Origin: a virus
IMG/VR virus record: IMGVR_UViG_3300045988_168162
Coordinates: 1-64,000 of that record
DNA length: 64,000 nt
Strand: one strand, 5' to 3'
The notes beneath the pieces are model-generated. The model had not been told where the DNA came from. It saw only the letters and a program-made list of their open reading frames with translations, and ran no database searches. The translations under genes and the position numbers were made by a program. This document shows positions 27,483 to 59,296 of the stretch, piece after piece. Position 1 is the stretch's first letter. Every line of letters begins with the position of its first letter.

Positions 27483-29537
27483 TTAAATTACGACCTTGAG
27501 CACGCGCTCGGTCTGACCTTTTACTTTGACGACAAAGGAATCGTGGCGGGTGGCGGAGAAGCCAACGCCGGAGAGCTGGTCGTCGACAGGCTGCACGGAC
27601 ATCTGAGAGCCGAGGGCTTCAAAGACGCGCTTGTGGGTCAGCAGCTCCTGCTTGATAAATTCATTGTAGAAGCCATTGAGCTTGTCCGGGTTCTGACAGC
27701 CCTTGAGCATGAAGAAATAGTGGCGATTGCCGATACCGGTCTGTTCGTCCCAATAGTTGGGGGAGTACATGGCAACGCTGACGGGGACAAACTGATTCGT
27801 GCTGATGTTCCAAATATTGCGGCTGGAGATATTGCTTTTGAGTTCGTCCTTGATGGTGAACTTGCCGTCCTTGAGAGTGACGGTGGCCACGGGGACATTC
27901 GTGCCGGTAGAAATCGGGTGGCGGTATTCATACTGATGGACCTCACCGTTGGCTTCGATCTCAGCGATAAAGCCGTTGTTTCCTGTGCGGCTGGCAAAGC
28001 AGTGGACATAGAATTTATAATCACCATCGGCCATCTTCTGCAGCATGGGCCAGGTGATATTTTCAACGGCAGGAACATTCTTGCTGGGGTGCGTAATATC
28101 AACATCCAGATTGCCGCCGGTAGAACTGAAGTGATTGCCATACCAGATATGATCAACAGGGGTACTGCAGTGTGCATCTTCATCCGAACGGTCCCAGTTA
28201 TCAGGTTCATCGTTCCACTGGATAGAGAAGCGGAGAACGCCATCGACCTTGCCGCCTGCACGCTTGACATTCTCGCGGATATCGGAATCAGCCAGATTGC
28301 CCGTGTAGGCCCATGCGAAAGCGTTATCCCATTTGAACATCGTTTTGGCGCCGTGATTGACAGGGGCGGTCAGCGAGACCATGTTCTTGGAAAAGCGGTT
28401 TTCCATGAACAACTCCAGCTCCCTGGCGATGGGCAGGACATCCGAGATGAATTTATCAATACCAATCTCCTCTACATGGGAGAATCGTTTTGGATCAATG
28501 GCAACCTGCTGTTCCATAGCGGCAAATGGGTCTGCGGCTGCACCGTTCATACGCATGACGGCATCGCGGTTGGCAAAGAGAATATTGTTGACGCTGATAT
28601 CATCGAGACGGGCAAAGCGGCGGGGCAGGGAATCCATATAACCGAGTTCCGTGACGGTTTTCTTGGCATCCTCAAGCATTCGTTTTGTGAAGATAGCCTT
28701 GGGACGCTTATAGTTGGCAGGGGCGACCACGCGCTCATAAGCAGTTACAGCAGCGTTGAGATCCTTGCCGTCTGACAAGTCAATAAGCAGTGTGCCGATG
28801 CTGGTATTGCGGATGCGTGCGAGAGCTGGGTTCATTTTGATGACATCGACCCAAGATTGCAGCTCTTTCTGCCCTGCGGTCATAGCGTTGTACTTCTCCT
28901 GATAGGAGGCAAGCTGTTCCAGCTGGGACTTCCACTCGGCACCACGGTAGAGGCTGTTCTGTGCAATGAGTTCCAGTACGGTCTGCGTAGCGTCGAGCGT
29001 CAGTTCACTCATGGAGCGCAGGAATACATTGCGGTCATCCCGGATACGGGCAGTTTCCGCGTTGATGTCGCGGGTGGTGTAAGCGCAGCGCGGTGTATTG
29101 ACGAAGAAATGATTCCATGTCAGAACCTTGTTGCTGTTTTCATCCCGCTCATAGCTGCTGGCGGTGCCGACGGTAGGCTCATGAGTCAGAAAAACATCCT
29201 TGATAGGCTTAGACTTGACATAGACGGAGAGGGCATCGACAACAGGCTGATAACATTCCGGCGAGGTGGTGTCAAAGTCCCAGATGGTTTCGATTCGGTT
29301 ATCACGAATAGCGACCACACCGCCCATCGTTTTAATGAAATGACGGCAGTAGGAGCAGTCAAATTCACGCCGGACACGATAAACGGGGTTTGTACCGGCA
29401 GGGAAGGAATCGAGATAAAGGTTCCAAAGTACATCCGGGTCGAAATCGACACGGTAAAGGGCGGCGGCGTCCTTGGTCATGGAATCAAAATGAGCCATGA
29501 ATTTGTGGTGAAATGAGTGGAATGACATGATAGCCAT
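27483..29537 (-). CDS. large hypothetical protein (684 aa)
   Basis: Long uninterrupted ORF with an SD. Single CSYCRHF motif. No family recognised. Confidence 0.6.
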   Translation of the reverse strand: MAIMSFHSFHHKFMAHFDSMTKDAAALYRVDFDPDVLWNLYLDSFPAGTNPVYRVRREFDCSYCRHFIKTMGGVVAIRDNRIETIWDFDTTSPECYQPVVDALSVYVKSKPIKDVFLTHEPTVGTASSYERDENSNKVLTWNHFFVNTPRCAYTTRDINAETARIRDDRNVFLRSMSELTLDATQTVLELIAQNSLYRGAEWKSQLEQLASYQEKYNAMTAGQKELQSWVDVIKMNPALARIRNTSIGTLLIDLSDGKDLNAAVTAYERVVAPANYKRPKAIFTKRMLEDAKKTVTELGYMDSLPRRFARLDDISVNNILFANRDAVMRMNGAAADPFAAMEQQVAIDPKRFSHVEEIGIDKFISDVLPIARELELFMENRFSKNMVSLTAPVNHGAKTMFKWDNAFAWAYTGNLADSDIRENVKRAGGKVDGVLRFSIQWNDEPDNWDRSDEDAHCSTPVDHIWYGNHFSSTGGNLDVDITHPSKNVPAVENITWPMLQKMADGDYKFYVHCFASRTGNNGFIAEIEANGEVHQYEYRHPISTGTNVPVATVTLKDGKFTIKDELKSNISSRNIWNISTNQFVPVSVAMYSPNYWDEQTGIGNRHYFFMLKGCQNPDKLNGFYNEFIKQELLTHKRVFEALGSQMSVQPVDDQLSGVGFSATRHDSFVVKVKGQTERVLKVVI

Positions 29538-29709: not shown

Positions 29710-30075
29710 TCACAGAACACGCGGATAGTAGCGCCGGTTGTGTTGGGCTTTATCGATCTTGCGGAGCTTGCCGACCAGCTCGGACAGTTCGCGGACGGCT
29801 TTTACATTATCAACGTCCTGCAGATAGTCTTTGATGGGCTGCATCCGCTCGATTTCATCCTTCATCATACGGCGAGTGGCGCGACACTCCTTGAGCTGCT
29901 TGGCCAGCTTGACCATTTCGACAGCGTCCAGAGATTCAAGCTCAAGCCTATGTAATAAATCCTGGGTAATGAGGTCTTGCTCTTTGACACCGGCCACGTT
30001 GACCTGATAGCGCATATCAAGATTTTGAAACAGCTGAACGGTTTGGGACAGGGAATCTGCTGCGGACGAGTCCAA
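29710..30075 (-). CDS. hypothetical coiled-coil protein
   Basis: ORF preceded by AAAGGAGTGAT. Confidence 0.45.
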   Translation of the reverse strand: MDSSAADSLSQTVQLFQNLDMRYQVNVAGVKEQDLITQDLLHRLELESLDAVEMVKLAKQLKECRATRRMMKDEIERMQPIKDYLQDVDNVKAVRELSELVGKLRKIDKAQHNRRYYPRVL

Positions 30076-30164
30076 GATAAATCACTCCTTTAAAATTATT
30101 TTTTTTTGATTGGCGCACAAAAGCGAGCTGCCCATCCCTGAGCGAGCTTTTTAGGTTTGCATTT

Positions 30165-30241
30165 GGTAACAAATTCATTAACTCGGATATGACCTGAGTT
30201 CGTTTTGCCGGGCTTAGATGGTTCCCCACAAAGGGTGACAC
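30165..30241 (-). ncRNA. copy A of a conserved structured-RNA module (4 copies in the window)
   Basis: GGTAACAAATTC + hairpin with invariant CGGATATGACCTG core and covarying outer stem + second hairpin + GGGTGACAC. Lies about 80 nt from tRNA-Thr. Strand inferred, not proven. Confidence 0.5.
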
Positions 30242-30321
30242 ATCGTGGCTGCCGACCACTATGTACTACGCCATTTGCTGTCTGCCGAAGCGGACGGAGA
30301 AATATGGATGACGAATCATCC

Positions 30322-30396
30322 TGGTGCTGGATGCAGGCTACGATCCCGCCTTGCCGGAGTACAAAACCGGGGTTCTACCAAATGAACTAATCCAGC
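30322..30396 (-). tRNA. tRNA-Thr (UGU)
   Basis: Cloverleaf read by eye: acceptor GCTGGAT/ATCCAGC, D arm GTTC/GAAC, anticodon loop TTTGTAC, encoded CCA. T-loop is ATCGTAG (non-canonical). Confidence 0.7.
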
Positions 30397-30437: not shown

Positions 30438-31019
30438 TTAAGAGCGTTTATCGAGAACTTTCTCGTCCATGTAAGCATCGATCATTCGTTGCGTTTCTTC
30501 ATACGTGTGCTCACGGGCGTAACGGTTTACGTAGTTGATGCCGACACCCATGATCCTGGCAGCCTCGCGCCCAGTGACAGGAATCCTGTAATAATGTGTG
30601 GTGGATTTATGCTTTGAGTTGAGCCGCGTTGGAATCCAACGGCAATTCTCTGGGCAGTAATCCTTAGAAGAATCAATACGGTCAATGGACAGACCGGGTT
30701 TATACCCGTTTTGTAAAGACCAGAAAATAAATTCATCCGGGTGATAGAGCCATTCATCACAAATTCGGATGCCTTTTGCGCCATAGAATTTATAATCAGA
30801 TGCAGAAGTATCGTAACATCGGTCTTTCATTTTTAAGAAAGTTTTGGTAAGATGAGAATTTGAGACAGATGCTTTGGCAGCATGAATCGTAGGAAATCCA
30901 AAACGATCATAATGCGGGCATGTGTCATTTTTTAAATAATGAAAGTCACCAATAGACCGAATTGTTTTTGTGCCGCAGTAGACGCACTCGCCAACATAAA
31001 GTGTCCGATTGTTTTGCAC
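30438..31019 (-). CDS. homing-endonuclease-like protein (HNH/AP2-related family)
   Basis: MKDRCYD..YKFYGAKGIRICDEW .. F..W .. GYKPGLSIDRIDSSKDYCPENCRWIP, a pattern common in free-standing phage endonucleases. C-terminal HTH-like GREAARIMGVGINYV. Confidence 0.6.
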   Translation of the reverse strand: MQNNRTLYVGECVYCGTKTIRSIGDFHYLKNDTCPHYDRFGFPTIHAAKASVSNSHLTKTFLKMKDRCYDTSASDYKFYGAKGIRICDEWLYHPDEFIFWSLQNGYKPGLSIDRIDSSKDYCPENCRWIPTRLNSKHKSTTHYYRIPVTGREAARIMGVGINYVNRYAREHTYEETQRMIDAYMDEKVLDKRS

Positions 31020-31469: not shown

Positions 31470-33008
31470 TTATACGAATAAAATACCCGTATTTTTTGCA
31501 ACAAACCTGCACTTTCCTGCTGCAATTTTATTTGTATTTGTATCATAGTACGTTGTTGCTTTTCCATTTCGAGAAGATACAATCCCTTGCATTATATGAA
31601 TTTGCTTTTTGACAAGAAAAATACTTCCTGGATAATTACGGTTCGGATTCCTGTATGTTTGATGATGTTTTTCAACTTTTAGTTTGCAAACAGTATTTTG
31701 ATTTTTTTTACGAAATTCTTCCAAACTATCTACAACCTGTTCAACAGCCTTATGCCGATTAAATGCTACTTTTTTACCATTGAACGTATATATGCGACTC
31801 ATGTTTGCATTATTTAACGCCCTCCTATCGTGACGACGGAACTGTTTAAGTTCATACGGTGCACGACTGTTGATTGTACTATCACAAACATCGTTAGGCA
31901 AAACAGAACAGGCAATGCAATAGGCATCGAGCCAGTGGTCTTTGCTTATACCGTGTGCTGCACGGTAATCGTAGGTGCTTTTTCCCGTTGTTACGAAAAA
32001 GTGCTTTTGAAAAAGAGAACTTAATTCTTTCGTCAGTGCCGGAATGATTTGATTCAATACACTCAAAGCACCATATTTTTTATTGAGTCCTGTTTTCTTT
32101 TTGGCGAGTTTTTCTTGCCATGCAGTATCCTTATGTACGAGGTTATGATGCTTTGCGCATAAGCCAACGATATTGGCAATTGTGTTGCTGCCATTTTTAT
32201 GTTGCGGTACTACATGATGGTAATGTTCAATAGGTTTCTTACAAAACAAGCAGTGCTGTTCCTGCATTTCAGAAACAGCGCTCTCAAGATCCCCTTTTTG
32301 ATAGAGTGGACCCTGTTGGTACTGCCACTTCTTGATAACGGGATTATCAAGCTGCATGAAAGCAAATTTGTTAACCTCAAGCACAACATCACTGATGGGA
32401 AGGAATTTTTGAATTTTCTTAACCAAGTTGATGTGTGTTTTGAGCAACTGATTTGCAGTAGGCGTAAGCCAGCCTTCCGGTCTTGTGCGATTGTTGAACT
32501 TTGCTTCTTTGTTCTTGATGCCAATGCAAAGGACTTCTTTCTCGCAACCCGGAAGATGGCGCTTAATGACGCCAATTTCTTTTGCACGCTTGCTGACGCT
32601 GCCATTTTGGGCAGTGTCTTGCTTCACGCACTTTTTAGAAATAGTGCCATTGGCTTTTGCTCTCCGCTGACGACGGCATCGTCTACCATTGGTACGTCTT
32701 GCACGGCGGGAATCCTTACGCTTTTTCATCAATTTCGGAATTTCCTTGTTACGGGTTTCCAGATGTGCGGTAAAGACTGCCGTGCCGTCCGTTTTAACAA
32801 CAGCAACACCGATATTGGTTCTGCCGGGGTCGATGCCCAAGTAAAGCGGTTGCACCACATCGTCAGTTTCATACAACAGTTGAATGGTAAACGGCTTTGT
32901 TCTTACGGCTCGTGCTTTCTGCTCTTTAAGAAGATGGCGTACATGCCCACAGCGAGTCGTAGGCATTAAAGGTTTACCGTCTTTATTAAGCACATATACA
33001 GTGGACAT
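31470..33008 (-). CDS. iscB: IscB RNA-guided nuclease (512 aa)
   Basis: PLMP motif (DGKPLMPT), RuvC-I LGIDPGRTNIG, Arg-rich bridge helix RRARRTNGRRCRRQRR, HNH (CLFCKK..HHVVP..N..LCAKHHNLVH), RuvC-III DHWLDAYC. ATG 33008 follows AAAGGAGG. Confidence 0.85.
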   Translation of the reverse strand: MSTVYVLNKDGKPLMPTTRCGHVRHLLKEQKARAVRTKPFTIQLLYETDDVVQPLYLGIDPGRTNIGVAVVKTDGTAVFTAHLETRNKEIPKLMKKRKDSRRARRTNGRRCRRQRRAKANGTISKKCVKQDTAQNGSVSKRAKEIGVIKRHLPGCEKEVLCIGIKNKEAKFNNRTRPEGWLTPTANQLLKTHINLVKKIQKFLPISDVVLEVNKFAFMQLDNPVIKKWQYQQGPLYQKGDLESAVSEMQEQHCLFCKKPIEHYHHVVPQHKNGSNTIANIVGLCAKHHNLVHKDTAWQEKLAKKKTGLNKKYGALSVLNQIIPALTKELSSLFQKHFFVTTGKSTYDYRAAHGISKDHWLDAYCIACSVLPNDVCDSTINSRAPYELKQFRRHDRRALNNANMSRIYTFNGKKVAFNRHKAVEQVVDSLEEFRKKNQNTVCKLKVEKHHQTYRNPNRNYPGSIFLVKKQIHIMQGIVSSRNGKATTYYDTNTNKIAAGKCRFVAKNTGILFV

Positions 33009-33240
33009 ATACGCCACCTCCTTTACGATAAGTCTCCCCTGCCGAAGCGGGAGGTTATGTTTCCCTTGGCTAGGTAGCAGCTTAGTAGTGTTGCAAGCTG
33101 GGAAAACCTGCAAGTACATCTGCTATCTTGATGTACAAAAGTACATCTGCCTGTGATATTGAAGGAACTTAGTGGAATGATATTATTTTATTAAAGTTCT
33201 TCAATACCCTACGACGATGTGCCGTTTCGGAAACCCGGAT
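33009..33240 (-). ncRNA. candidate IscB omega-RNA (HEARO-like) scaffold
   Basis: 232-nt non-coding leader immediately 5' of iscB with several hairpins (GATGTAC-TTTT-GTACATC; TAGCAG..CTGCTA; CTCCCGC-TTCG-GCAGGGGAG). The position matches known IscB omega-RNAs. Boundaries unknown. Confidence 0.45.
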
Positions 33241-33485: not shown

Positions 33486-34030
33486 ATAATAAGAGAGAAC
33501 CTACCCCTGGATGACTCGAACGTCCGTTTTCAGCCTGCGCTGCTGTCCTTGCCTATTAGACGAAGCGGCAAGCTCTCTCTGAATTGGATTGAAAGTGTTT
33601 TCTTCTTGGCTCCCATTTCTATAGCCAGGATTCCGATAGTGGCGAACTATCCTAGGTGTTGGTTTATCTGCTAATGTTTACAGACTCTATAGCAGACCAC
33701 ATGCGAGTGGTGAAACCTTTGGCACCTGCCGGTTATCTGCAGGCACACGCTTTCAATCTTGGCGGGGCACTATCCCCAGCCTGTTGGTGGGACCTGGACC
33801 TTGCGGCCAGCCCCCGAGTTGTGCGAGACCTAGATCTGAGCGAGGCGAATCCTGCCTTTGCCGTTTGGCATCTCGCGGTAACGGAACCTGAATTCATGCG
33901 GATTTCACTGGGCGATATCTAATAAATAGACACCGAAACCGTTCATCATCCGAAGCAGCTGGATTCCGTTTTGCCCTGATTCCGGCTTTCGGCAGGTGAT
34001 CGGCCTGCTATAGAACCAGGGCAATGGTGC
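33486..34030 (-). ncRNA. long structured non-coding region between tRNA-Pro and RNA module B
   Basis: No credible ORF. Many local and long-range helices, e.g. 33971-33978/34017-34024 (8 bp), a GNRA-capped hairpin at 33794-33810, and a tRNA T-arm-like GGACG-TTCGAGT-CATCC at 33509-33525. Confidence 0.4.
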
Positions 34031-34319
34031 GGAATGAATCTTGACCAGACAGCCCGCGATTGGTATGTATAATGCAATGGGTGTGGCGCATGGTCTGGGT
34101 GACAAATTTGAACACTCGGATATGACCTGAGTGTGGCGCGTGTTGCAAGGGAATTCTCGTGCCTGGAGGCAGCTGCACATTTCGATTATACTGACAAAGT
34201 AGTGGCATAATCCACTGGACAACCTGGGCCGTGACTGTCATTAACCCTTGGCAGAAACCAGGTATTACTTTCGCGAGAATCCTGTGGCGCTGCTGTGCGC
34301 TGTTGGTAAGATTCATTCC
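34031..34319 (-). ncRNA. copy B of the conserved structured-RNA module, closed by a 12-bp helix
   Basis: GGAATGAATCTT (34031-34042) pairs with AAGATTCATTCC (34308-34319). The conserved module GGGTGACAAATTTGAACACTCGGATATGACCTGAGTG lies at 34097-34133. Abuts tRNA-Gly. Confidence 0.5.
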
Positions 34320-34321
34320 GT

Positions 34322-55362: not shown

Positions 55363-55653
55363 TTAGTATTCGTCCGGGAAGAGGACCGTGGTTACGGAAC
55401 GGTCCCACTCGGTGATGATCCAGATGCGCCAATCGGGATGATCGGCGGGGTTATAGACGCTGAACAGGCGATCATTGCCAGAGGTAAGAGCTTCATTATT
55501 GAGCTGGGCATCCTCGGCACAGCAATCACCCCAGTCAGCGTTTTCGTGGCGGGTGATACACTGATACACATAGGTAAAGAAATTACGGTCATCATTCATC
55601 TTGGCGGCGATTTCATCCGTGACTACAAGAGAGCCAAGCTTGAATTTACTCAT
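55363..55653 (-). CDS. conserved plasmid/phage small protein (96 aa)
   Basis: ADWGDCCAEDAQLNNEAL .. RIWIITEWDRSVTTVLFPDEY. I recognise this pattern as a recurrent mobile-element family of unknown function. Confidence 0.5.
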   Translation of the reverse strand: MSKFKLGSLVVTDEIAAKMNDDRNFFTYVYQCITRHENADWGDCCAEDAQLNNEALTSGNDRLFSVYNPADHPDWRIWIITEWDRSVTTVLFPDEY

Positions 55654-55817
55654 ACAGAAGCACTTCCTTTCGGGTTGGCCGCGAAGAACTCATCCTCGGG
55701 GCAGAAGGGGCAATACCAGGAACCGCCGCGGTAGAAAGCGCCGGGTGTGTCCGGCAGACATTCGTAACAGACGGTGCCGTCTACAAAAGCAAGGGTGTAG
55801 GTGATGGATTTCATCAT
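55650..55817 (-). CDS. zinc-ribbon mini-protein (55 aa, below track cutoff)
   Basis: MMKSITYTLAFVDGTVCYEC..WYCPFCPEDE. ATGA overlap with the next gene. AAAGGAAA SD. Confidence 0.4.
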   Translation of the reverse strand: MMKSITYTLAFVDGTVCYECLPDTPGAFYRGGSWYCPFCPEDEFFAANPKGSASV

Positions 55818-55845
55818 TGAATATCATTTCCTTTCTGTGTGGTTT

Positions 55846-56190
55846 TGTGTGATGTAAGCTGATAAGGTGGCTGCCTGGACCAGGAGGTGGTCCCAACTCG
55901 TTATTCAGAAGCTGCTGCTCAATTTTAGGAAGTCCTGGTACGATTTTCTGGGTACGAAGCACTGTTGATTGGACGTGTAAGTGAGCTAATCGCTATGGAC
56001 TCTGACGCTTTTGCCAGTCGTTAGTTGGCAGTAAACTCTGAATCTTCGCTGAAGAATCACTAGGATCGCGATGGCCATCGGCGACTCGCCGATCGTGGTG
56101 GGTGGACTGGGTAACAAATTCATACTCTCGGATATGACCTGAGAGTTTTTGCCTTGAACTACAAAGCAAAAGTAAACCTTACATAACACA
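55846..56190 (-). ncRNA. copy C of the structured-RNA element (345 nt) downstream of the RT gene
   Basis: Closed by a 13-bp inverted repeat with one mismatch (56178-56190 vs 55846-55858). Conserved module at 56109-56146. Same 5' layout as copy D. Confidence 0.55.
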
Positions 56191-56398: not shown

Positions 56399-57589
56399 TC
56401 AAGCTGCTTTGGGCTTGAGATCGTCAGAGATACAGGTGAGAAGATCGGCACCATATCTGGCGTTGTACTTTTGGATGACACCGGCAATGGTGGCGGGTTC
56501 TACACTAAGGTAGTAGCTGATATTGCCGCGGAACTTTTGGAGATCCTCTTCGTCCCATTTTTTGCCGTTGCGGCGGTCTTTGAAATAGGTTTCGATGGTA
56601 GCTTTAAGGATTTTGTGGTTTCGATAACCAACGGTAATATCGCCATCCTTATTGAGCATCAGACCGAGCATCCAGTTACGACCGGCGCGGGTGCCGAAGT
56701 GGGTCTTTTCGGTATTCAAGGTAAAGGGAGCATCGAGTTCATGAAGCATGGCGATCAGTTCCCGCTCGACCTTGCGGTAGTTGAAGAAGACCCGGCAGGA
56801 GATATGAATATCATCGGCATAGCGGGTGTAACAGATGCGGTCTGTGATGGGCGTGCCATCTGGGTTGACTTTGCCGCTTTGGAACTGGTTGAGCAGGCGG
56901 GCAAACTTATGGTCGAAGGGAATCATCATGACATTGGTGATGAAAGGGGAGAACGGGGTGCCCTGTGGCAGGCCGTTATTGAGAAACGCCAGGCTTAAAG
57001 CGCGGCGAAGCTCCCTGCGGCCGGTGGGGTCTGCCAGGATCAGGTTGAAGGGATAGATCTCTTCCATCTGTTTGAAGACAAAGTGCGGTGTGGTGGATGG
57101 GAAAAAGCCGTGGAAATCATAATGGCAGAAGTACCAGCTGCGGAACCGCTGATGCTTGATAACGGCATCCTTGGTGGAGCGGCCATTGACATAGGCAAAA
57201 GCGCAGGTGTGGTGGTCGGCAAACATCCAGCCGGACATCATATCCTTGAGCTGAGCCAATGCCTTTTTGAGTTCCGGGTGCGGGGCATCAATGGGACGCA
57301 TCTTGCCGCCGGTCTTTTTCGGGATCTCGAAATGATCGTAGAGTTCCCATTTGTTGGGGTAATCGATCAGATCCTTATAGCAGGTATTGAACATCTTGAG
57401 CTGGCTGATCATGGCGTCCAGGCAAGTGATTTTCATAATGCGCTCAGGAACTTTGTCGCATACAACGGTGCGGGTGGAGCCGTGACCGCCGGAACGTAAG
57501 GAATCCAGCGGAATATCGACACCGAGCATAAGTTCCTCGAACGTGATTTGACGAACGGTTTCGGGGGTATTGTAAGTTATGTATACCAT
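56399..57589 (-). CDS. reverse transcriptase, retron/Abi-like type (396 aa)
   Basis: FEIPKKTGGKMRPIDAP (RT1-2), NGLPQGTPFSPFITN (RT4), YTRYADDIHIS (YADD box in a retron-like context). Start at MVYITYN (ATG 57589). The longer track ORF runs into structured non-coding RNA. Confidence 0.85.
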   Translation of the reverse strand: MVYITYNTPETVRQITFEELMLGVDIPLDSLRSGGHGSTRTVVCDKVPERIMKITCLDAMISQLKMFNTCYKDLIDYPNKWELYDHFEIPKKTGGKMRPIDAPHPELKKALAQLKDMMSGWMFADHHTCAFAYVNGRSTKDAVIKHQRFRSWYFCHYDFHGFFPSTTPHFVFKQMEEIYPFNLILADPTGRRELRRALSLAFLNNGLPQGTPFSPFITNVMMIPFDHKFARLLNQFQSGKVNPDGTPITDRICYTRYADDIHISCRVFFNYRKVERELIAMLHELDAPFTLNTEKTHFGTRAGRNWMLGLMLNKDGDITVGYRNHKILKATIETYFKDRRNGKKWDEEDLQKFRGNISYYLSVEPATIAGVIQKYNARYGADLLTCISDDLKPKAA

Positions 57590-57607
57590 AGTGGTGTACC
57601 TCGATTG

Positions 57608-57944
57608 TGTTTGTGATCTTGAAGGAATGATGCTGATCTTGCGAAGCTGATCAGCTTCCTGGATTAGCTCCATACAGTGGTGGAATTGGCTTAAAACTCC
57701 AATCAGACAACTGACTGATGTCCAATCTGCGGCTGCCAAGTCTATTACATGACCAATCGACATCGATTGCCCGCTAAGTTAGCTTAAAATGCCCTTGATG
57801 TGAGCGGCGGAACTCGGCGATTCTTGTGGCACCCCCAGATGCGCCTGGCGCGTGCCTGCCCGGTCTGGGTAACAAATTCGTACTCTCGGATATGACCTGA
57901 GAGTCGTTGCGATTTACAAAATGCAACGGTAAACATCACAAACA
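57608..57944 (-). ncRNA. copy D of the structured-RNA element (337 nt) immediately upstream of the RT (retron msr-msd-like position)
   Basis: Closed by a perfect 10-bp inverted repeat (57935-57944 vs 57608-57617) that ends 19 nt before the RT ATG. Conserved module at 57867-57904. TATAAT box at about 57968. Confidence 0.55.
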
Positions 57945-57993: not shown

Positions 57994-58677
57994 TTACATG
58001 GCCGTGATAGCTCCTTCCGTGTCGAGATTGAAAGGCGCAACCAGGATCAAATCCTTGATCTTGCCATCCGTGACAAACTTTTGGAAGTTGATAACGGTCA
58101 TGGTGGCAGCCATGCGAACCGTGGGCGCTACACCAAGGACCTCGCCACAGGCGGAACGGGGCACCTCAGCGGTCGCTTCCTCGTGGGTGAAGTTCATACT
58201 GTCGAGCAGTGCTTTCTTGGCCTGCGGGTCACGCCAGTCGGCTGCATAAAGCTGGGCATCAAACAATGCCGTGCGGACATCAAACATCGCCTTGATATTG
58301 GCGTTGTACTGATTGCGCTTGACAATGTCGCGCCGGATCGCAATATCATCCACGGCCAGGAACACATAGCCTGCCAGCGGCTCACCATGCCAGCCATCGG
58401 GTTTGACCTTGACGGTTTCATTACAGGTCAGATTGATATTACCAAGAATATCTCGCAAGGCATCGACCTTTTTCATGCCGACATGGTCATCGAAGAACAT
58501 CTGGTTGACGAGGTTTTTCTCCTCGACCTTGTCCATATCCCAAAGGGTGAACTTGGTGAGACCGTAGCGGGCCAGCAGCTCGGCGATGGTAGAACCGACA
58601 GAACCGCAGCCAATAATGTGAATGGGAGCGGTGATCTTGGCGGGGTCGAAAACCTCGCGGCTCTTATTTAAATTCAT
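57994..58677 (-). CDS. ThiF/MoeB/E1-like adenylyltransferase (227 aa)
   Basis: Rossmann IIGCGSVGS plus DMDKVEEKNLVNQ. Start at MNLNKSRE after AGGAGGTCCCCG. Confidence 0.75.
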   Translation of the reverse strand: MNLNKSREVFDPAKITAPIHIIGCGSVGSTIAELLARYGLTKFTLWDMDKVEEKNLVNQMFFDDHVGMKKVDALRDILGNINLTCNETVKVKPDGWHGEPLAGYVFLAVDDIAIRRDIVKRNQYNANIKAMFDVRTALFDAQLYAADWRDPQAKKALLDSMNFTHEEATAEVPRSACGEVLGVAPTVRMAATMTVINFQKFVTDGKIKDLILVAPFNLDTEGAITAM

Positions 58678-59296
58678 CGGGGACCTCCTGACCGTAGGTG
58701 TACCAATCGTACTGCTTATAGTGGTTGTACTGGTTGAAATAGATGGGCGGCTGAACGACCGGCAGCGATTCGACCTTGACCATGGTTTTGACTTCATCCA
58801 GGAAGGACGGGTCAAAAGTATCGTAGGTAAGAAGAACTTCGTCCTGTTCACGAATCGTGCCATGATCGTAGATGTGGGCTGTGTAGTAGAGATCCTTGTT
58901 CCAGATCATGAAGATATAGAACTGGTTATCCGGGATGTGGCGTTCCTCCTGGCTTTGGATATCCGTACCGGAGGGGTGCGTGTCCATATAGACGTGGCTG
59001 TGACCGTGGTAGTGCAGGTCATCAAAGTTGGGATGCTCAAAGTACCAGCGGCCATATTCCTCCTGATCGACCACCACCGTAGCAGCGGTGACCGTTTGCG
59101 GATAGACCGTGATATCATAGACCTCCCAGCCATCCTGGATGGGGCGGGTAAGACCATGCCAGCCGATTTCGGTGTTATACTCGTTCAGCAGAGCGAGCTG
59201 TTTGTTCCAGGCATTGGCCGTGAAGTGGATATGAATGGGTTTCTTTGCGGGTGCCTTGACGGCGGGGGCCTTTTCATTCGGGCTCGTTTTGGACAT
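58664..59296 (-). CDS. JAB/MPN (JAMM) metalloprotease-like protein
   Basis: EIGWHG .. HSHVYMDTHPSGTD matches E..HxH-x7-S-xx-D. Overlaps the E1-like gene by 14 nt. Confidence 0.75.
   Translation of the reverse strand: MSKTSPNEKAPAVKAPAKKPIHIHFTANAWNKQLALLNEYNTEIGWHGLTRPIQDGWEVYDITVYPQTVTAATVVVDQEEYGRWYFEHPNFDDLHYHGHSHVYMDTHPSGTDIQSQEERHIPDNQFYIFMIWNKDLYYTAHIYDHGTIREQDEVLLTYDTFDPSFLDEVKTMVKVESLPVVQPPIYFNQYNHYKQYDWYTYGQEVPDEFK

Follow-up and report, generated by a model that had tools for sequence, protein, structure and literature searches.

A covarying hairpin module in a large phage, most likely the reverse transcriptase handle of retron-type RNA units, two of which lie within a tRNA cluster

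A retron comprises one reverse transcriptase (RT) and one adjacent non-coding RNA (ncRNA), and is found in bacterial defence islands. To our knowledge, known retron ncRNAs all adjoin their RT, and a limited literature search brought up no phage retron described as having multiple or dispersed ncRNA genes. Where the literature treats phage tRNAs and retrons together, its subject is a separate one, the rescue of hosts from retron effectors by phage tRNAs. For Retron-Eco7 the layout of the RNA is known: the branching G and, opposite it, G127 mark the end of the a1:a2 stem, and the stem-loops SL1 and SL2 follow, the latter being 22 nt long and bound by the thumb of the RT (PMC12673091). A 10-nt linker, L1, then leads to 6 nt that stay paired to the 3′ end of the cDNA, and the contacts between RT, SL2 and linker determine where reverse transcription stops (PMC12673091).

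We analysed the first 64 kb, here called the window, of a phage genome that is complete at 146,780 bp and carries direct terminal repeats. A sequence-only reading of the window had described a structured-RNA module in four copies, and this recurrence was confirmed: the text GGTAACAAATTC / GGGTRACAAATTY begins at 30165, 34097, 56109 and 57867 (copies A, B, C and D), and the 13-mer CGGATATGACCTG has four exact matches in the window (30184, 34117, 56129 and 57887), all on the plus strand and the only ones in the whole genome. The 16-mer TCGGATATGACCTGAG, which contains the 13-mer, likewise finds only those four sites in all 146,780 bp when up to two mismatches are allowed, with no match at the same tolerance on the opposite strand of the whole genome. 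On the plus strand each copy runs from the GGTAACAAATTC block through a short spacer to complementary stems, which are ACTC/GAGT in copy A, ACACTC/GAGTGT in copy B and ACTCTC/GAGAGT in copies C and D. The flanking stems do change in the compensatory manner that had been claimed, being complementary within each copy whilst differing in sequence between copies, and the second hairpin that had been said to covary is real, reading TTTTGC/GCAAAA in copy C and CGTTGC/GCAACG in copy D. BLAST comparisons among 800-nt pieces around the copies found similarity confined to the ~40-nt module.

The check that had been proposed, a covariance model, was built (R1) and in this genome recovers the four copies at E values of ~1e-16 or lower (61.9 bits and 1.4e-16 for copy A), the next best match having E = 0.007. 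Rfam offered no family to explain them. At the gathering threshold, across the whole window, only tRNAs and a DUF3800-XI RNA passed and nothing fell at the module, and at E ≤ 10 no match overlapped it in the regions of copy A and copies C/D, a result that holds for the families searched, among which the inclusion of the retron msr model is unconfirmed. In a megablast of 27–37 kb against the GenBank phage collection, the sole match was tRNA-Leu.

Although the module had been quoted as plus-strand text, the sense strand of the RNA is most likely the minus strand, because this strand encodes every one of the six tRNAs as well as the region's long ORFs, and the G·U pairs of several helices would become A·C on the plus strand (the second of two UUCG-capped hairpins near copy A is an exception). 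Read in this direction, the module is a hairpin of 21–23 nt, HP1, with a 5–6-bp stem that closes with a C-G pair before a 1-nt bulge, then GG/CC and the hexaloop UCAUAU. HP1 runs into the conserved ACGAAUUUGU linker: three variable bases are followed by AAUUUGUUACC(C), the conserved tail of ~16 nt being GAAUUUGUUACC as a whole. A scan of IMG/VR with the pattern GGTCATATCC-N9-AATTTGT returned many copies in phage contigs of ~90–150 kb, together with chance matches within coding sequence, and ten distinct, unambiguously alignable copies from this and related phages were aligned. AAUUUGU is invariant in all ten, always 8 nt past the loop-closing G. Standard pairs occupy 98.8% of the cells of this ten-sequence alignment, against 22–52% in slid controls; five of the eight HP1 pairs show double-sided compensatory changes across phages; and the covariation score is 0.478, compared with 0.006–0.167 when the 3′ partners are slid by one to three columns. 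By this comparison HP1 is under structural selection, in support of the functional RNA fold that had been proposed. The ‘invariant centre’ of the earlier description needs to be redrawn: the 13-mer is indeed identical in the four copies, but part of it is stem (the GG/CC around the hexaloop), and the loop-closing pair alternates between C-G and U-A among copies, so that the stem reaches into the supposed centre. An invariant loop and linker combined with covarying stems is the pattern of an RNA ligand site.

A candidate ligand is encoded in the same genome. The protein between copies D and C is a retron-type RT, with matches to Pfam RVT_1 and to the PADLOC models RT_II-A (3.9e-45) and RT_I-A (2.3e-35). 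All of its best PDB matches are retron RTs, including Ec83, Ec78, St85 and Ec86, and the retrons that it matches best are Eco7 (Ec78, type I-A), Ec83/Eco8 and St85/Sen2 (type II-A). The longest ORF, of 454 aa, starts at 57763, and its first ~58 codons cross the variable part of unit D (57590–57763; units are defined below); conservation among near-identical phages resumes ~60 nt before the ATG at 57589, which has a GAGG ribosome-binding site. We therefore place the real start of the RT at 57589, giving 396 aa; automatic gene calls will over-extend it through unit D. Immediately upstream of unit D and the RT there is a ThiF/E1-like gene (57994–58863, minus strand; Pfam ThiF, 2.8e-20; PADLOC E1-E2 models).

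The dimensions of the module compare closely with those of Retron-Eco7, with 21–23 nt for HP1 against 22 nt for SL2, and a tail of ~16 nt against the 10 nt of L1 plus 6 nt of heteroduplex. By analogy of layout and sizes, and not as a claim of homology between the RNAs, we read the module as an RT handle, most likely equivalent to SL2, L1 and the stop site. What had been taken for a free-standing structured module would then be the handle of retron-type ncRNA units tied to the RT of the same genome (Table 1).

Table 1. Units, RT and neighbouring features in the window (minus-strand RNA sequences)
Feature	Position	Strand	Description
121-aa gene, phrog_2717	29710..30075	-	TTG start at 30075; Shine-Dalgarno (SD) 30091-30085
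A-run	30107-30099	-	between a2 and SD
Unit A	30273-30111 (~163 nt)	-	complete short unit enclosing copy A
a2 of unit A, UGCGCCA	30111..30117	-	3′ strand of closing helix; fold, relatives' substitution
Candidate opposing G	30118	-	directly 5′ of a2; parallel to Eco7 G127
HP3	30151-30119	-	stem AAAAGC/GCUUUU, loop UCGCU...GCUC; end of template-like segment
Short template-like (msd-like) segment	30119..30163	-	spacer and HP3; sequence, fold
Conserved tail, AAUGAAUUUGUUACCA	30164..30179	-	linker and predicted cDNA stop / heteroduplex site
HP1, AACUC-A-GG-UCAUAU-CC-GAGUU	30180..30200	-	SL2-like; R1 match, covariation
5′ domain, 65 nt	30201..30265	-	hairpin CAUAGUGG/CCACGAUG and CCCGGCAAAA stretch
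Candidate branching G	30266	-	first unpaired nt inside a1, then UACAUAG; branch itself predicted
a1 of unit A, UGGCGUA	30267..30273	-	5′ strand of closing helix; pairs with 30117-30111 in unconstrained minimum free energy (MFE) fold
UUCG-capped hairpin, GUCCGC-UUCG-GCAGAC	30280..30295	-	one C·A mismatch on minus strand
Hairpin GGAUGA-UUCG-UCAUCC	30306..30321	-	directly 3′ of tRNA CCA; then AUAUUUCUCC
tRNA-Thr (UGU), encoded CCA	30322..30396	-	ARAGORN; Rfam tRNA 47.2 bits; likely upstream partner in same transcript
Unit B, type 2	34030..34320	-	HP1 34112-34134; variable 5′ domain, short 3′ part
Unit C, type 1	55846..56190	-	a1, G, GUUUAC, HP2, HP1 (56124-56146), tail, ~240-nt variable part, AUCAG, a2
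Unit C closing helix	a1 56190-56178, a2 55858-55846	-	UGUGUUAUGUAAG / CUUACAUCACACA
Retron-type RT, 396 aa	56399..57589	-	PADLOC, PDB, Pfam; between copies D and C
Unit D, type 1	57609..57943	-	directly upstream of RT; HP1 57882-57904
Unit D closing helix	a1 57943-57935, a2 57617-57609	-	GUUUGUGAU / AUCACAAAC

The units fall into two classes. Those beside the RT (type 1, units C and D) follow the order a1, G, HP2, HP1, linker, a variable part of ~240 nt, G, a2, ribosome-binding site and gene, with G-UUUAC after a1 and (A)UCAG or UCAAG before a2, so that an unpaired G faces an unpaired G. Only HP2 lies ahead of HP1 in this class, and the long 3′ part is hypervariable: when three near-identical phages were aligned, the stretch after the module in units C and D was replaced or heavily changed between almost identical flanks. 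Each of the RT-side units ends 19–35 nt ahead of a gene start, the distance from the a2 of unit D to the RT start being 19 nt, and directly after unit C there is a small ORF (~55650–55830, minus strand; MMKSITYTLAFVDGTVCYECLPD...WYCPFCPEDE...) with two CxxC pairs that is zinc-ribbon-like. Type 2 (units A and B) has a long, lineage-variable 5′ domain and a conserved short 3′ part of 45–50 nt; in unit B, the a1 of which begins 1 nt past the CCA of tRNA-Gly, the difference among close relatives sits 5′ of HP1. Unconstrained MFE folding forms both a1:a2 and HP1 in all four units. In units A, C and D a G lies directly inside the closing helix on either strand; for unit B the G/G pair comes from a hand reading of the MFE dot-bracket after extending the helix. 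A blastn-short search of the template-like and 5′ domains of units A–D against the whole phage genome gave no significant second site, and thus no obvious internal target.

Copy A had been described as lacking the long 3′ part and the closing helix of copies C and D. It is indeed without the second hairpin of the C/D type, the GUUUAC box, the AUCAG start motif of the RT-side units and the long variable part, but it possesses a 7-bp closing helix of its own, and since a1:a2 forms along with HP1 in the unconstrained MFE structure of the region, copy A is not open-ended. From the sequence comparison it is a complete, shorter unit of the second architecture, common to copy B and to counterparts elsewhere, and not a truncation. 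The folding energy of the 246-nt copy A region gives z = −2.3 against shuffles (3/200). At 7 bp the closing helix is much weaker than the 10–16 bp of units B–D, and an automated search for long inverted repeats did not return it among the ranked hits; the top automated match for copy A, with the SD and start of the next gene, contains several mismatches and was set aside as chance.

In the three closest phages there are four substitutions in the 163 nt of unit A. Two are in loops, one changes A-U to G·U, and one (G30116A, in two close relatives) turns a U·G pair of a1:a2 into U-A; two of the four, one in a loop and the A-U to G·U change, lie in the 5′ domain. The substitution level of unit A (0.6–2.5%) resembles that of the flanking genes (1.6–4.4%), and copy A thus does not share the hypervariability of units C and D. 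The same level, being no lower than in neighbouring genes, would also fit a decaying relic, a degenerate duplicate of a C-like unit in the tRNA cluster with no present function, and so would the weak closing helix and the 5′ domain, where the CCCGGCAAAA stretch matches the 3′ half of the second hairpin of copy C, only that half (GGCAAAA) being left beside HP1. We consider this origin rather improbable, given that the 13-nt core is identical to that of the other three copies, that all four substitutions preserve the structure, and that the related phages described below have a counterpart with fully compensated helices and lack the handle exactly where the RT is missing.

This phage, G001–G005, G011, G013 and G015 have R1 copies on the RT side as well as on the tRNA side. 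The presence of the RT was verified for this phage and G001–G005, whose RTs are 62–63% identical to the one described here, and in that lineage three copies surround the RT with more ~20 kb away in the tRNA cluster. Four complete genomes (G007–G010) have neither an RT nor an R1 match. The phage G006, with an RT that is 48% identical, has no R1 match either; at the equivalent place it carries a different handle, CCGGUAUUACCGA followed by GAAAUUUUGAU. Its hairpin, TCCGGTATTACCGA, is followed by GAAATTTTGAT, and four such units stand beside the RT (84126, 85671, 86013 and 86340; L106, G006:83000–87500), one upstream and three in tandem downstream; the tRNA region of G006 has no such handle units. 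This looks like a second example of co-variation between RT and handle, and among the phages examined the handle is confined to those with an RT of its own lineage.

The counterpart of copy A in the lineage with the 62–63% identical RTs follows a tRNA (tRNA-Ile in G001) and comprises a1 (CCCGGCAAA), G, a 47-nt domain, HP1 (stem CUUCC/GGAAG, loop UCAUAC), (U)GAAUUU and, at the 3′ end, HP3 (CAAGUUC/GAACUUG, the loop ends reading UCGCU...GCUC as in copy A), G and a2 (UUUGCCGGG), closed by a helix of 9–10 bp. Between these two lineages all three helices differ in sequence and yet pair. The counterpart of unit B sits exactly between tRNA-Gly and tRNA-Thr and is closed by AACAGAAUAA... / ...UUAUUCUGUU. 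All four copies of the present phage have A as the bulged base of HP1, and every printed copy of the other lineage has C, on the tRNA and RT sides alike. Such a lineage-specific base suggests that all copies track one partner, probably a protein; concerted evolution by gene conversion could be an alternative source of the shared base.

Between the tRNA (tRNA-Ile in G001) and the copy-A counterpart, these related phages have an extra unit, A′ (L085 ~1640–1790; G001 ~28535–28685, minus strand; also in G002–G005, G011, G013 and G015), where this window has the two UUCG hairpins instead. Its order is AAUCAUCCC, UGGUAAAAC, HP1 (GCACUC-C-GG-UCAUAU-CC-GAGCGC), ~45 nt, GGGAUGAUU and a U-run, and it keeps the handle hairpin without the GAAUUUGU linker.

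Relatives of the present phage that are without unit A show where it has been gained or lost: in these, G007–G010 among them, tRNA-Thr joins a homologue of the 121-aa gene (62% identical) after 52 nt, a junction that marks the ~215-nt block of hairpins and unit A as a discrete indel. Next to the copy-A counterpart the downstream gene varies, with at least three different starts, whilst the tRNA upstream is kept, which argues against a gene-specific leader; the 121-aa gene is probably not tied to unit A in function. These arrangements bear on the idea of a cis element on either strand, one that would serve as leader or attenuator to the 121-aa gene, end the tRNA operon as its terminator, act as a promoter or bind a protein as DNA. 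It would account for the a2 of units A, C and D ending 19–35 nt before a ribosome-binding site and start codon, and for the T-rich text that follows the plus-strand HP1 of copies A and C, copy C being listed as terminator-like. However, the 121-aa gene exists without unit A, and at least three other genes are found downstream of copy-A counterparts; on the plus strand, HP1 of copies B and D lacks a following T-run, and the text 5′ of copy D is hypervariable and promoter-less. Together with the ligand-site pattern of invariant loop and linker on covarying stems, this makes a cis element very unlikely. Sigma-70 promoter and terminator scans of both strands gave the module no consistent role, the one promoter-like site on the plus strand being near copy B only. 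Sigma-54 and phage-promoter readings were rejected, as the spacing does not fit and the stems covary, and so was an intrinsic terminator: HP1 on the minus strand has the linker in place of a U-run, and on the plus strand the T-rich text is found only at copies A and C.

The start of unit A is 48 nt from the CCA of tRNA-Thr. Two UUCG-capped hairpins had been reported in this interval, and both exist, although the UUCG appears only on the minus strand, where the second has its mismatch. The first, which a consensus scan lists as terminator-like (a 6-bp stem with three G-C pairs), may be a weak terminator-like or processing hairpin and could terminate the tRNA transcript ahead of unit A. No sigma-70-type promoter was found on the minus strand between the tRNAs and units A and B, so read-through from the tRNA operon followed by processing would be the simplest source of both units, and unit A is probably co-transcribed with tRNA-Thr.

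Other RNA and endonuclease genes are found in the same cluster. An RRXRR + HNH protein of 549 aa (31470–33119, minus strand), an IscB-like domain pair, is encoded between tRNA-Met and tRNA-Gln; a DUF3800-XI RNA (33765–33814, minus strand; Rfam 44.3 bits against a gathering threshold of 37.8) lies ~220 nt downstream of unit B; and an HNH endonuclease gene (30438–31019) occupies the site on the upstream side of tRNA-Thr that in relatives holds a RAGATH-33 RNA (123 bits; L098 1123–1249, also L095/L096). A match to HEARO, the IscB omega-RNA, stands beside tRNA-Thr in a further related phage (85.6 bits; L075 611–870), whilst in this window no HEARO match passed the threshold. The tRNA cluster is in effect a swap-shop in which RNA genes and homing endonucleases replace one another. 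HEARO, RAGATH-33 and DUF3800-XI share with unit A the niche of indel-prone cassettes between tRNA genes; they differ in that no such model matches unit A and in that the handle co-occurs with the RT and not with HNH genes.

Measured against the classical definition of a retron, unit A conforms only in part. A retron-type RT is encoded in the same element, and unit A has closing repeats a1 and a2 (7 bp) with a G inside a1 facing a G before a2 (G30266/G30118), an arrangement also present in units C, D and B and in the copy-A counterpart. An ncRNA immediately upstream of the RT, as in a classical retron, is found in unit D but not in copy A, which is ~26 kb away. The series of terminal inverted repeats, G opposite G, a last msr-like stem-loop of ~22 nt, a linker of ~16 nt and a template is that of clade-1/2 msr-msd RNAs. 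Handle and linker are conserved, with covarying stems, are matched to the RT by lineage and resemble SL2 and L1 of Eco7 in size; their recognition by the RT is predicted.

The repeat, the covarying fold, the closing helices with their G/G ends, an RT of retron type and the handle's co-occurrence with it lead us to infer, with middling confidence, a trans-acting retron-type ncRNA in unit A; it is probably co-transcribed with tRNA-Thr and would template a cDNA of ~50 nt. It would be made within the tRNA-Thr transcript and then trimmed out, and its ends would pair as a1:a2, with one unpaired G remaining on either side where the helix stops. The RT of the phage, encoded 26 kb away, would bind HP1 and the GAAUUUGUUACC linker in trans, prime at G30266 after a1 and copy the short 3′ segment with HP3 from 30119 upward, until reverse transcription stopped in the linker to leave a cDNA of ~50 nt joined to the RNA. 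Several features weigh against this scheme: the 7-bp closing helix is not conserved in sequence with the other lineage, the comparison being one of two lineages; the 26 kb to the RT is unlike known retron ncRNAs; copy A is without GUUUAC and AUCAG; and neither the unit B counterpart nor A′ of the other lineage has a clean G/G end.

Some of the same features would suit a unit A that binds the RT, or the RT–msDNA complex, through HP1 and linker but is not copied, acting as a decoy, a titrator or a carrier delivering its lineage-specific 5′ domain to the RT complex. In type 2 units the variable part is that 5′ domain and not the template-like 3′ part, which together with the missing GUUUAC and AUCAG motifs, the closing helix of just 7 bp and the retention of HP1 without the GAAUUUGU linker in A′ would be natural for such a binder. 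A pure binding site, however, has no reason to keep a G/G-flanked closing helix and HP3, and both are kept in two lineages, so that we regard an uncopied binder as unlikely.

If unit A is instead a copied, trans-acting ncRNA, the system to which it belongs would depart from known retrons in several respects. One RT accompanies four ncRNA units (six in related phages) of two architectures, and units A and B lie 22–26 kb from it, within the tRNA cluster. The RT has ~80 extra N-terminal residues compared with known retron RTs; a ThiF/E1-like gene and no known retron effector is adjacent; and in place of a bacterial defence island, the setting is a 147-kb phage with terminal repeats. A phage RT linked to hypervariable sequence, as in units C and D, is also a trait of diversity-generating retroelements (DGRs). 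A DGR was rejected, since the RT is retron-type, there is no TR/VR pair, copy A is not hypervariable, and relatives differ in units C and D at other bases as well as at adenines (judged by eye, uncounted).

Taken together, it is a tentative possibility that this large gut phage runs a multi-template retron, in which one RT would serve four to six dispersed ncRNA genes of two classes: long units with hypervariable templates beside the RT, and short units with conserved templates and lineage-specific 5′ domains, sited within the tRNA operon and set free by tRNA processing. Were this so, the supply of copy A would be coupled to the expression of the phage tRNAs, for example in counter-defence or superinfection exclusion. 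One phage RT would be served by several RNAs, two of them far off among tRNA genes; action in trans and production via tRNA processing would then be open to retron RNAs, and annotation restricted to the neighbourhoods of RTs would miss them. The comparison also defines a compact element for predicted RT recognition, a bulged hairpin of 21–23 nt with a 16-nt linker, whose natural variants co-vary with RT lineage and may serve retron engineering. For abundant gut phages, it raises the question of what role several phage-made msDNAs would play.
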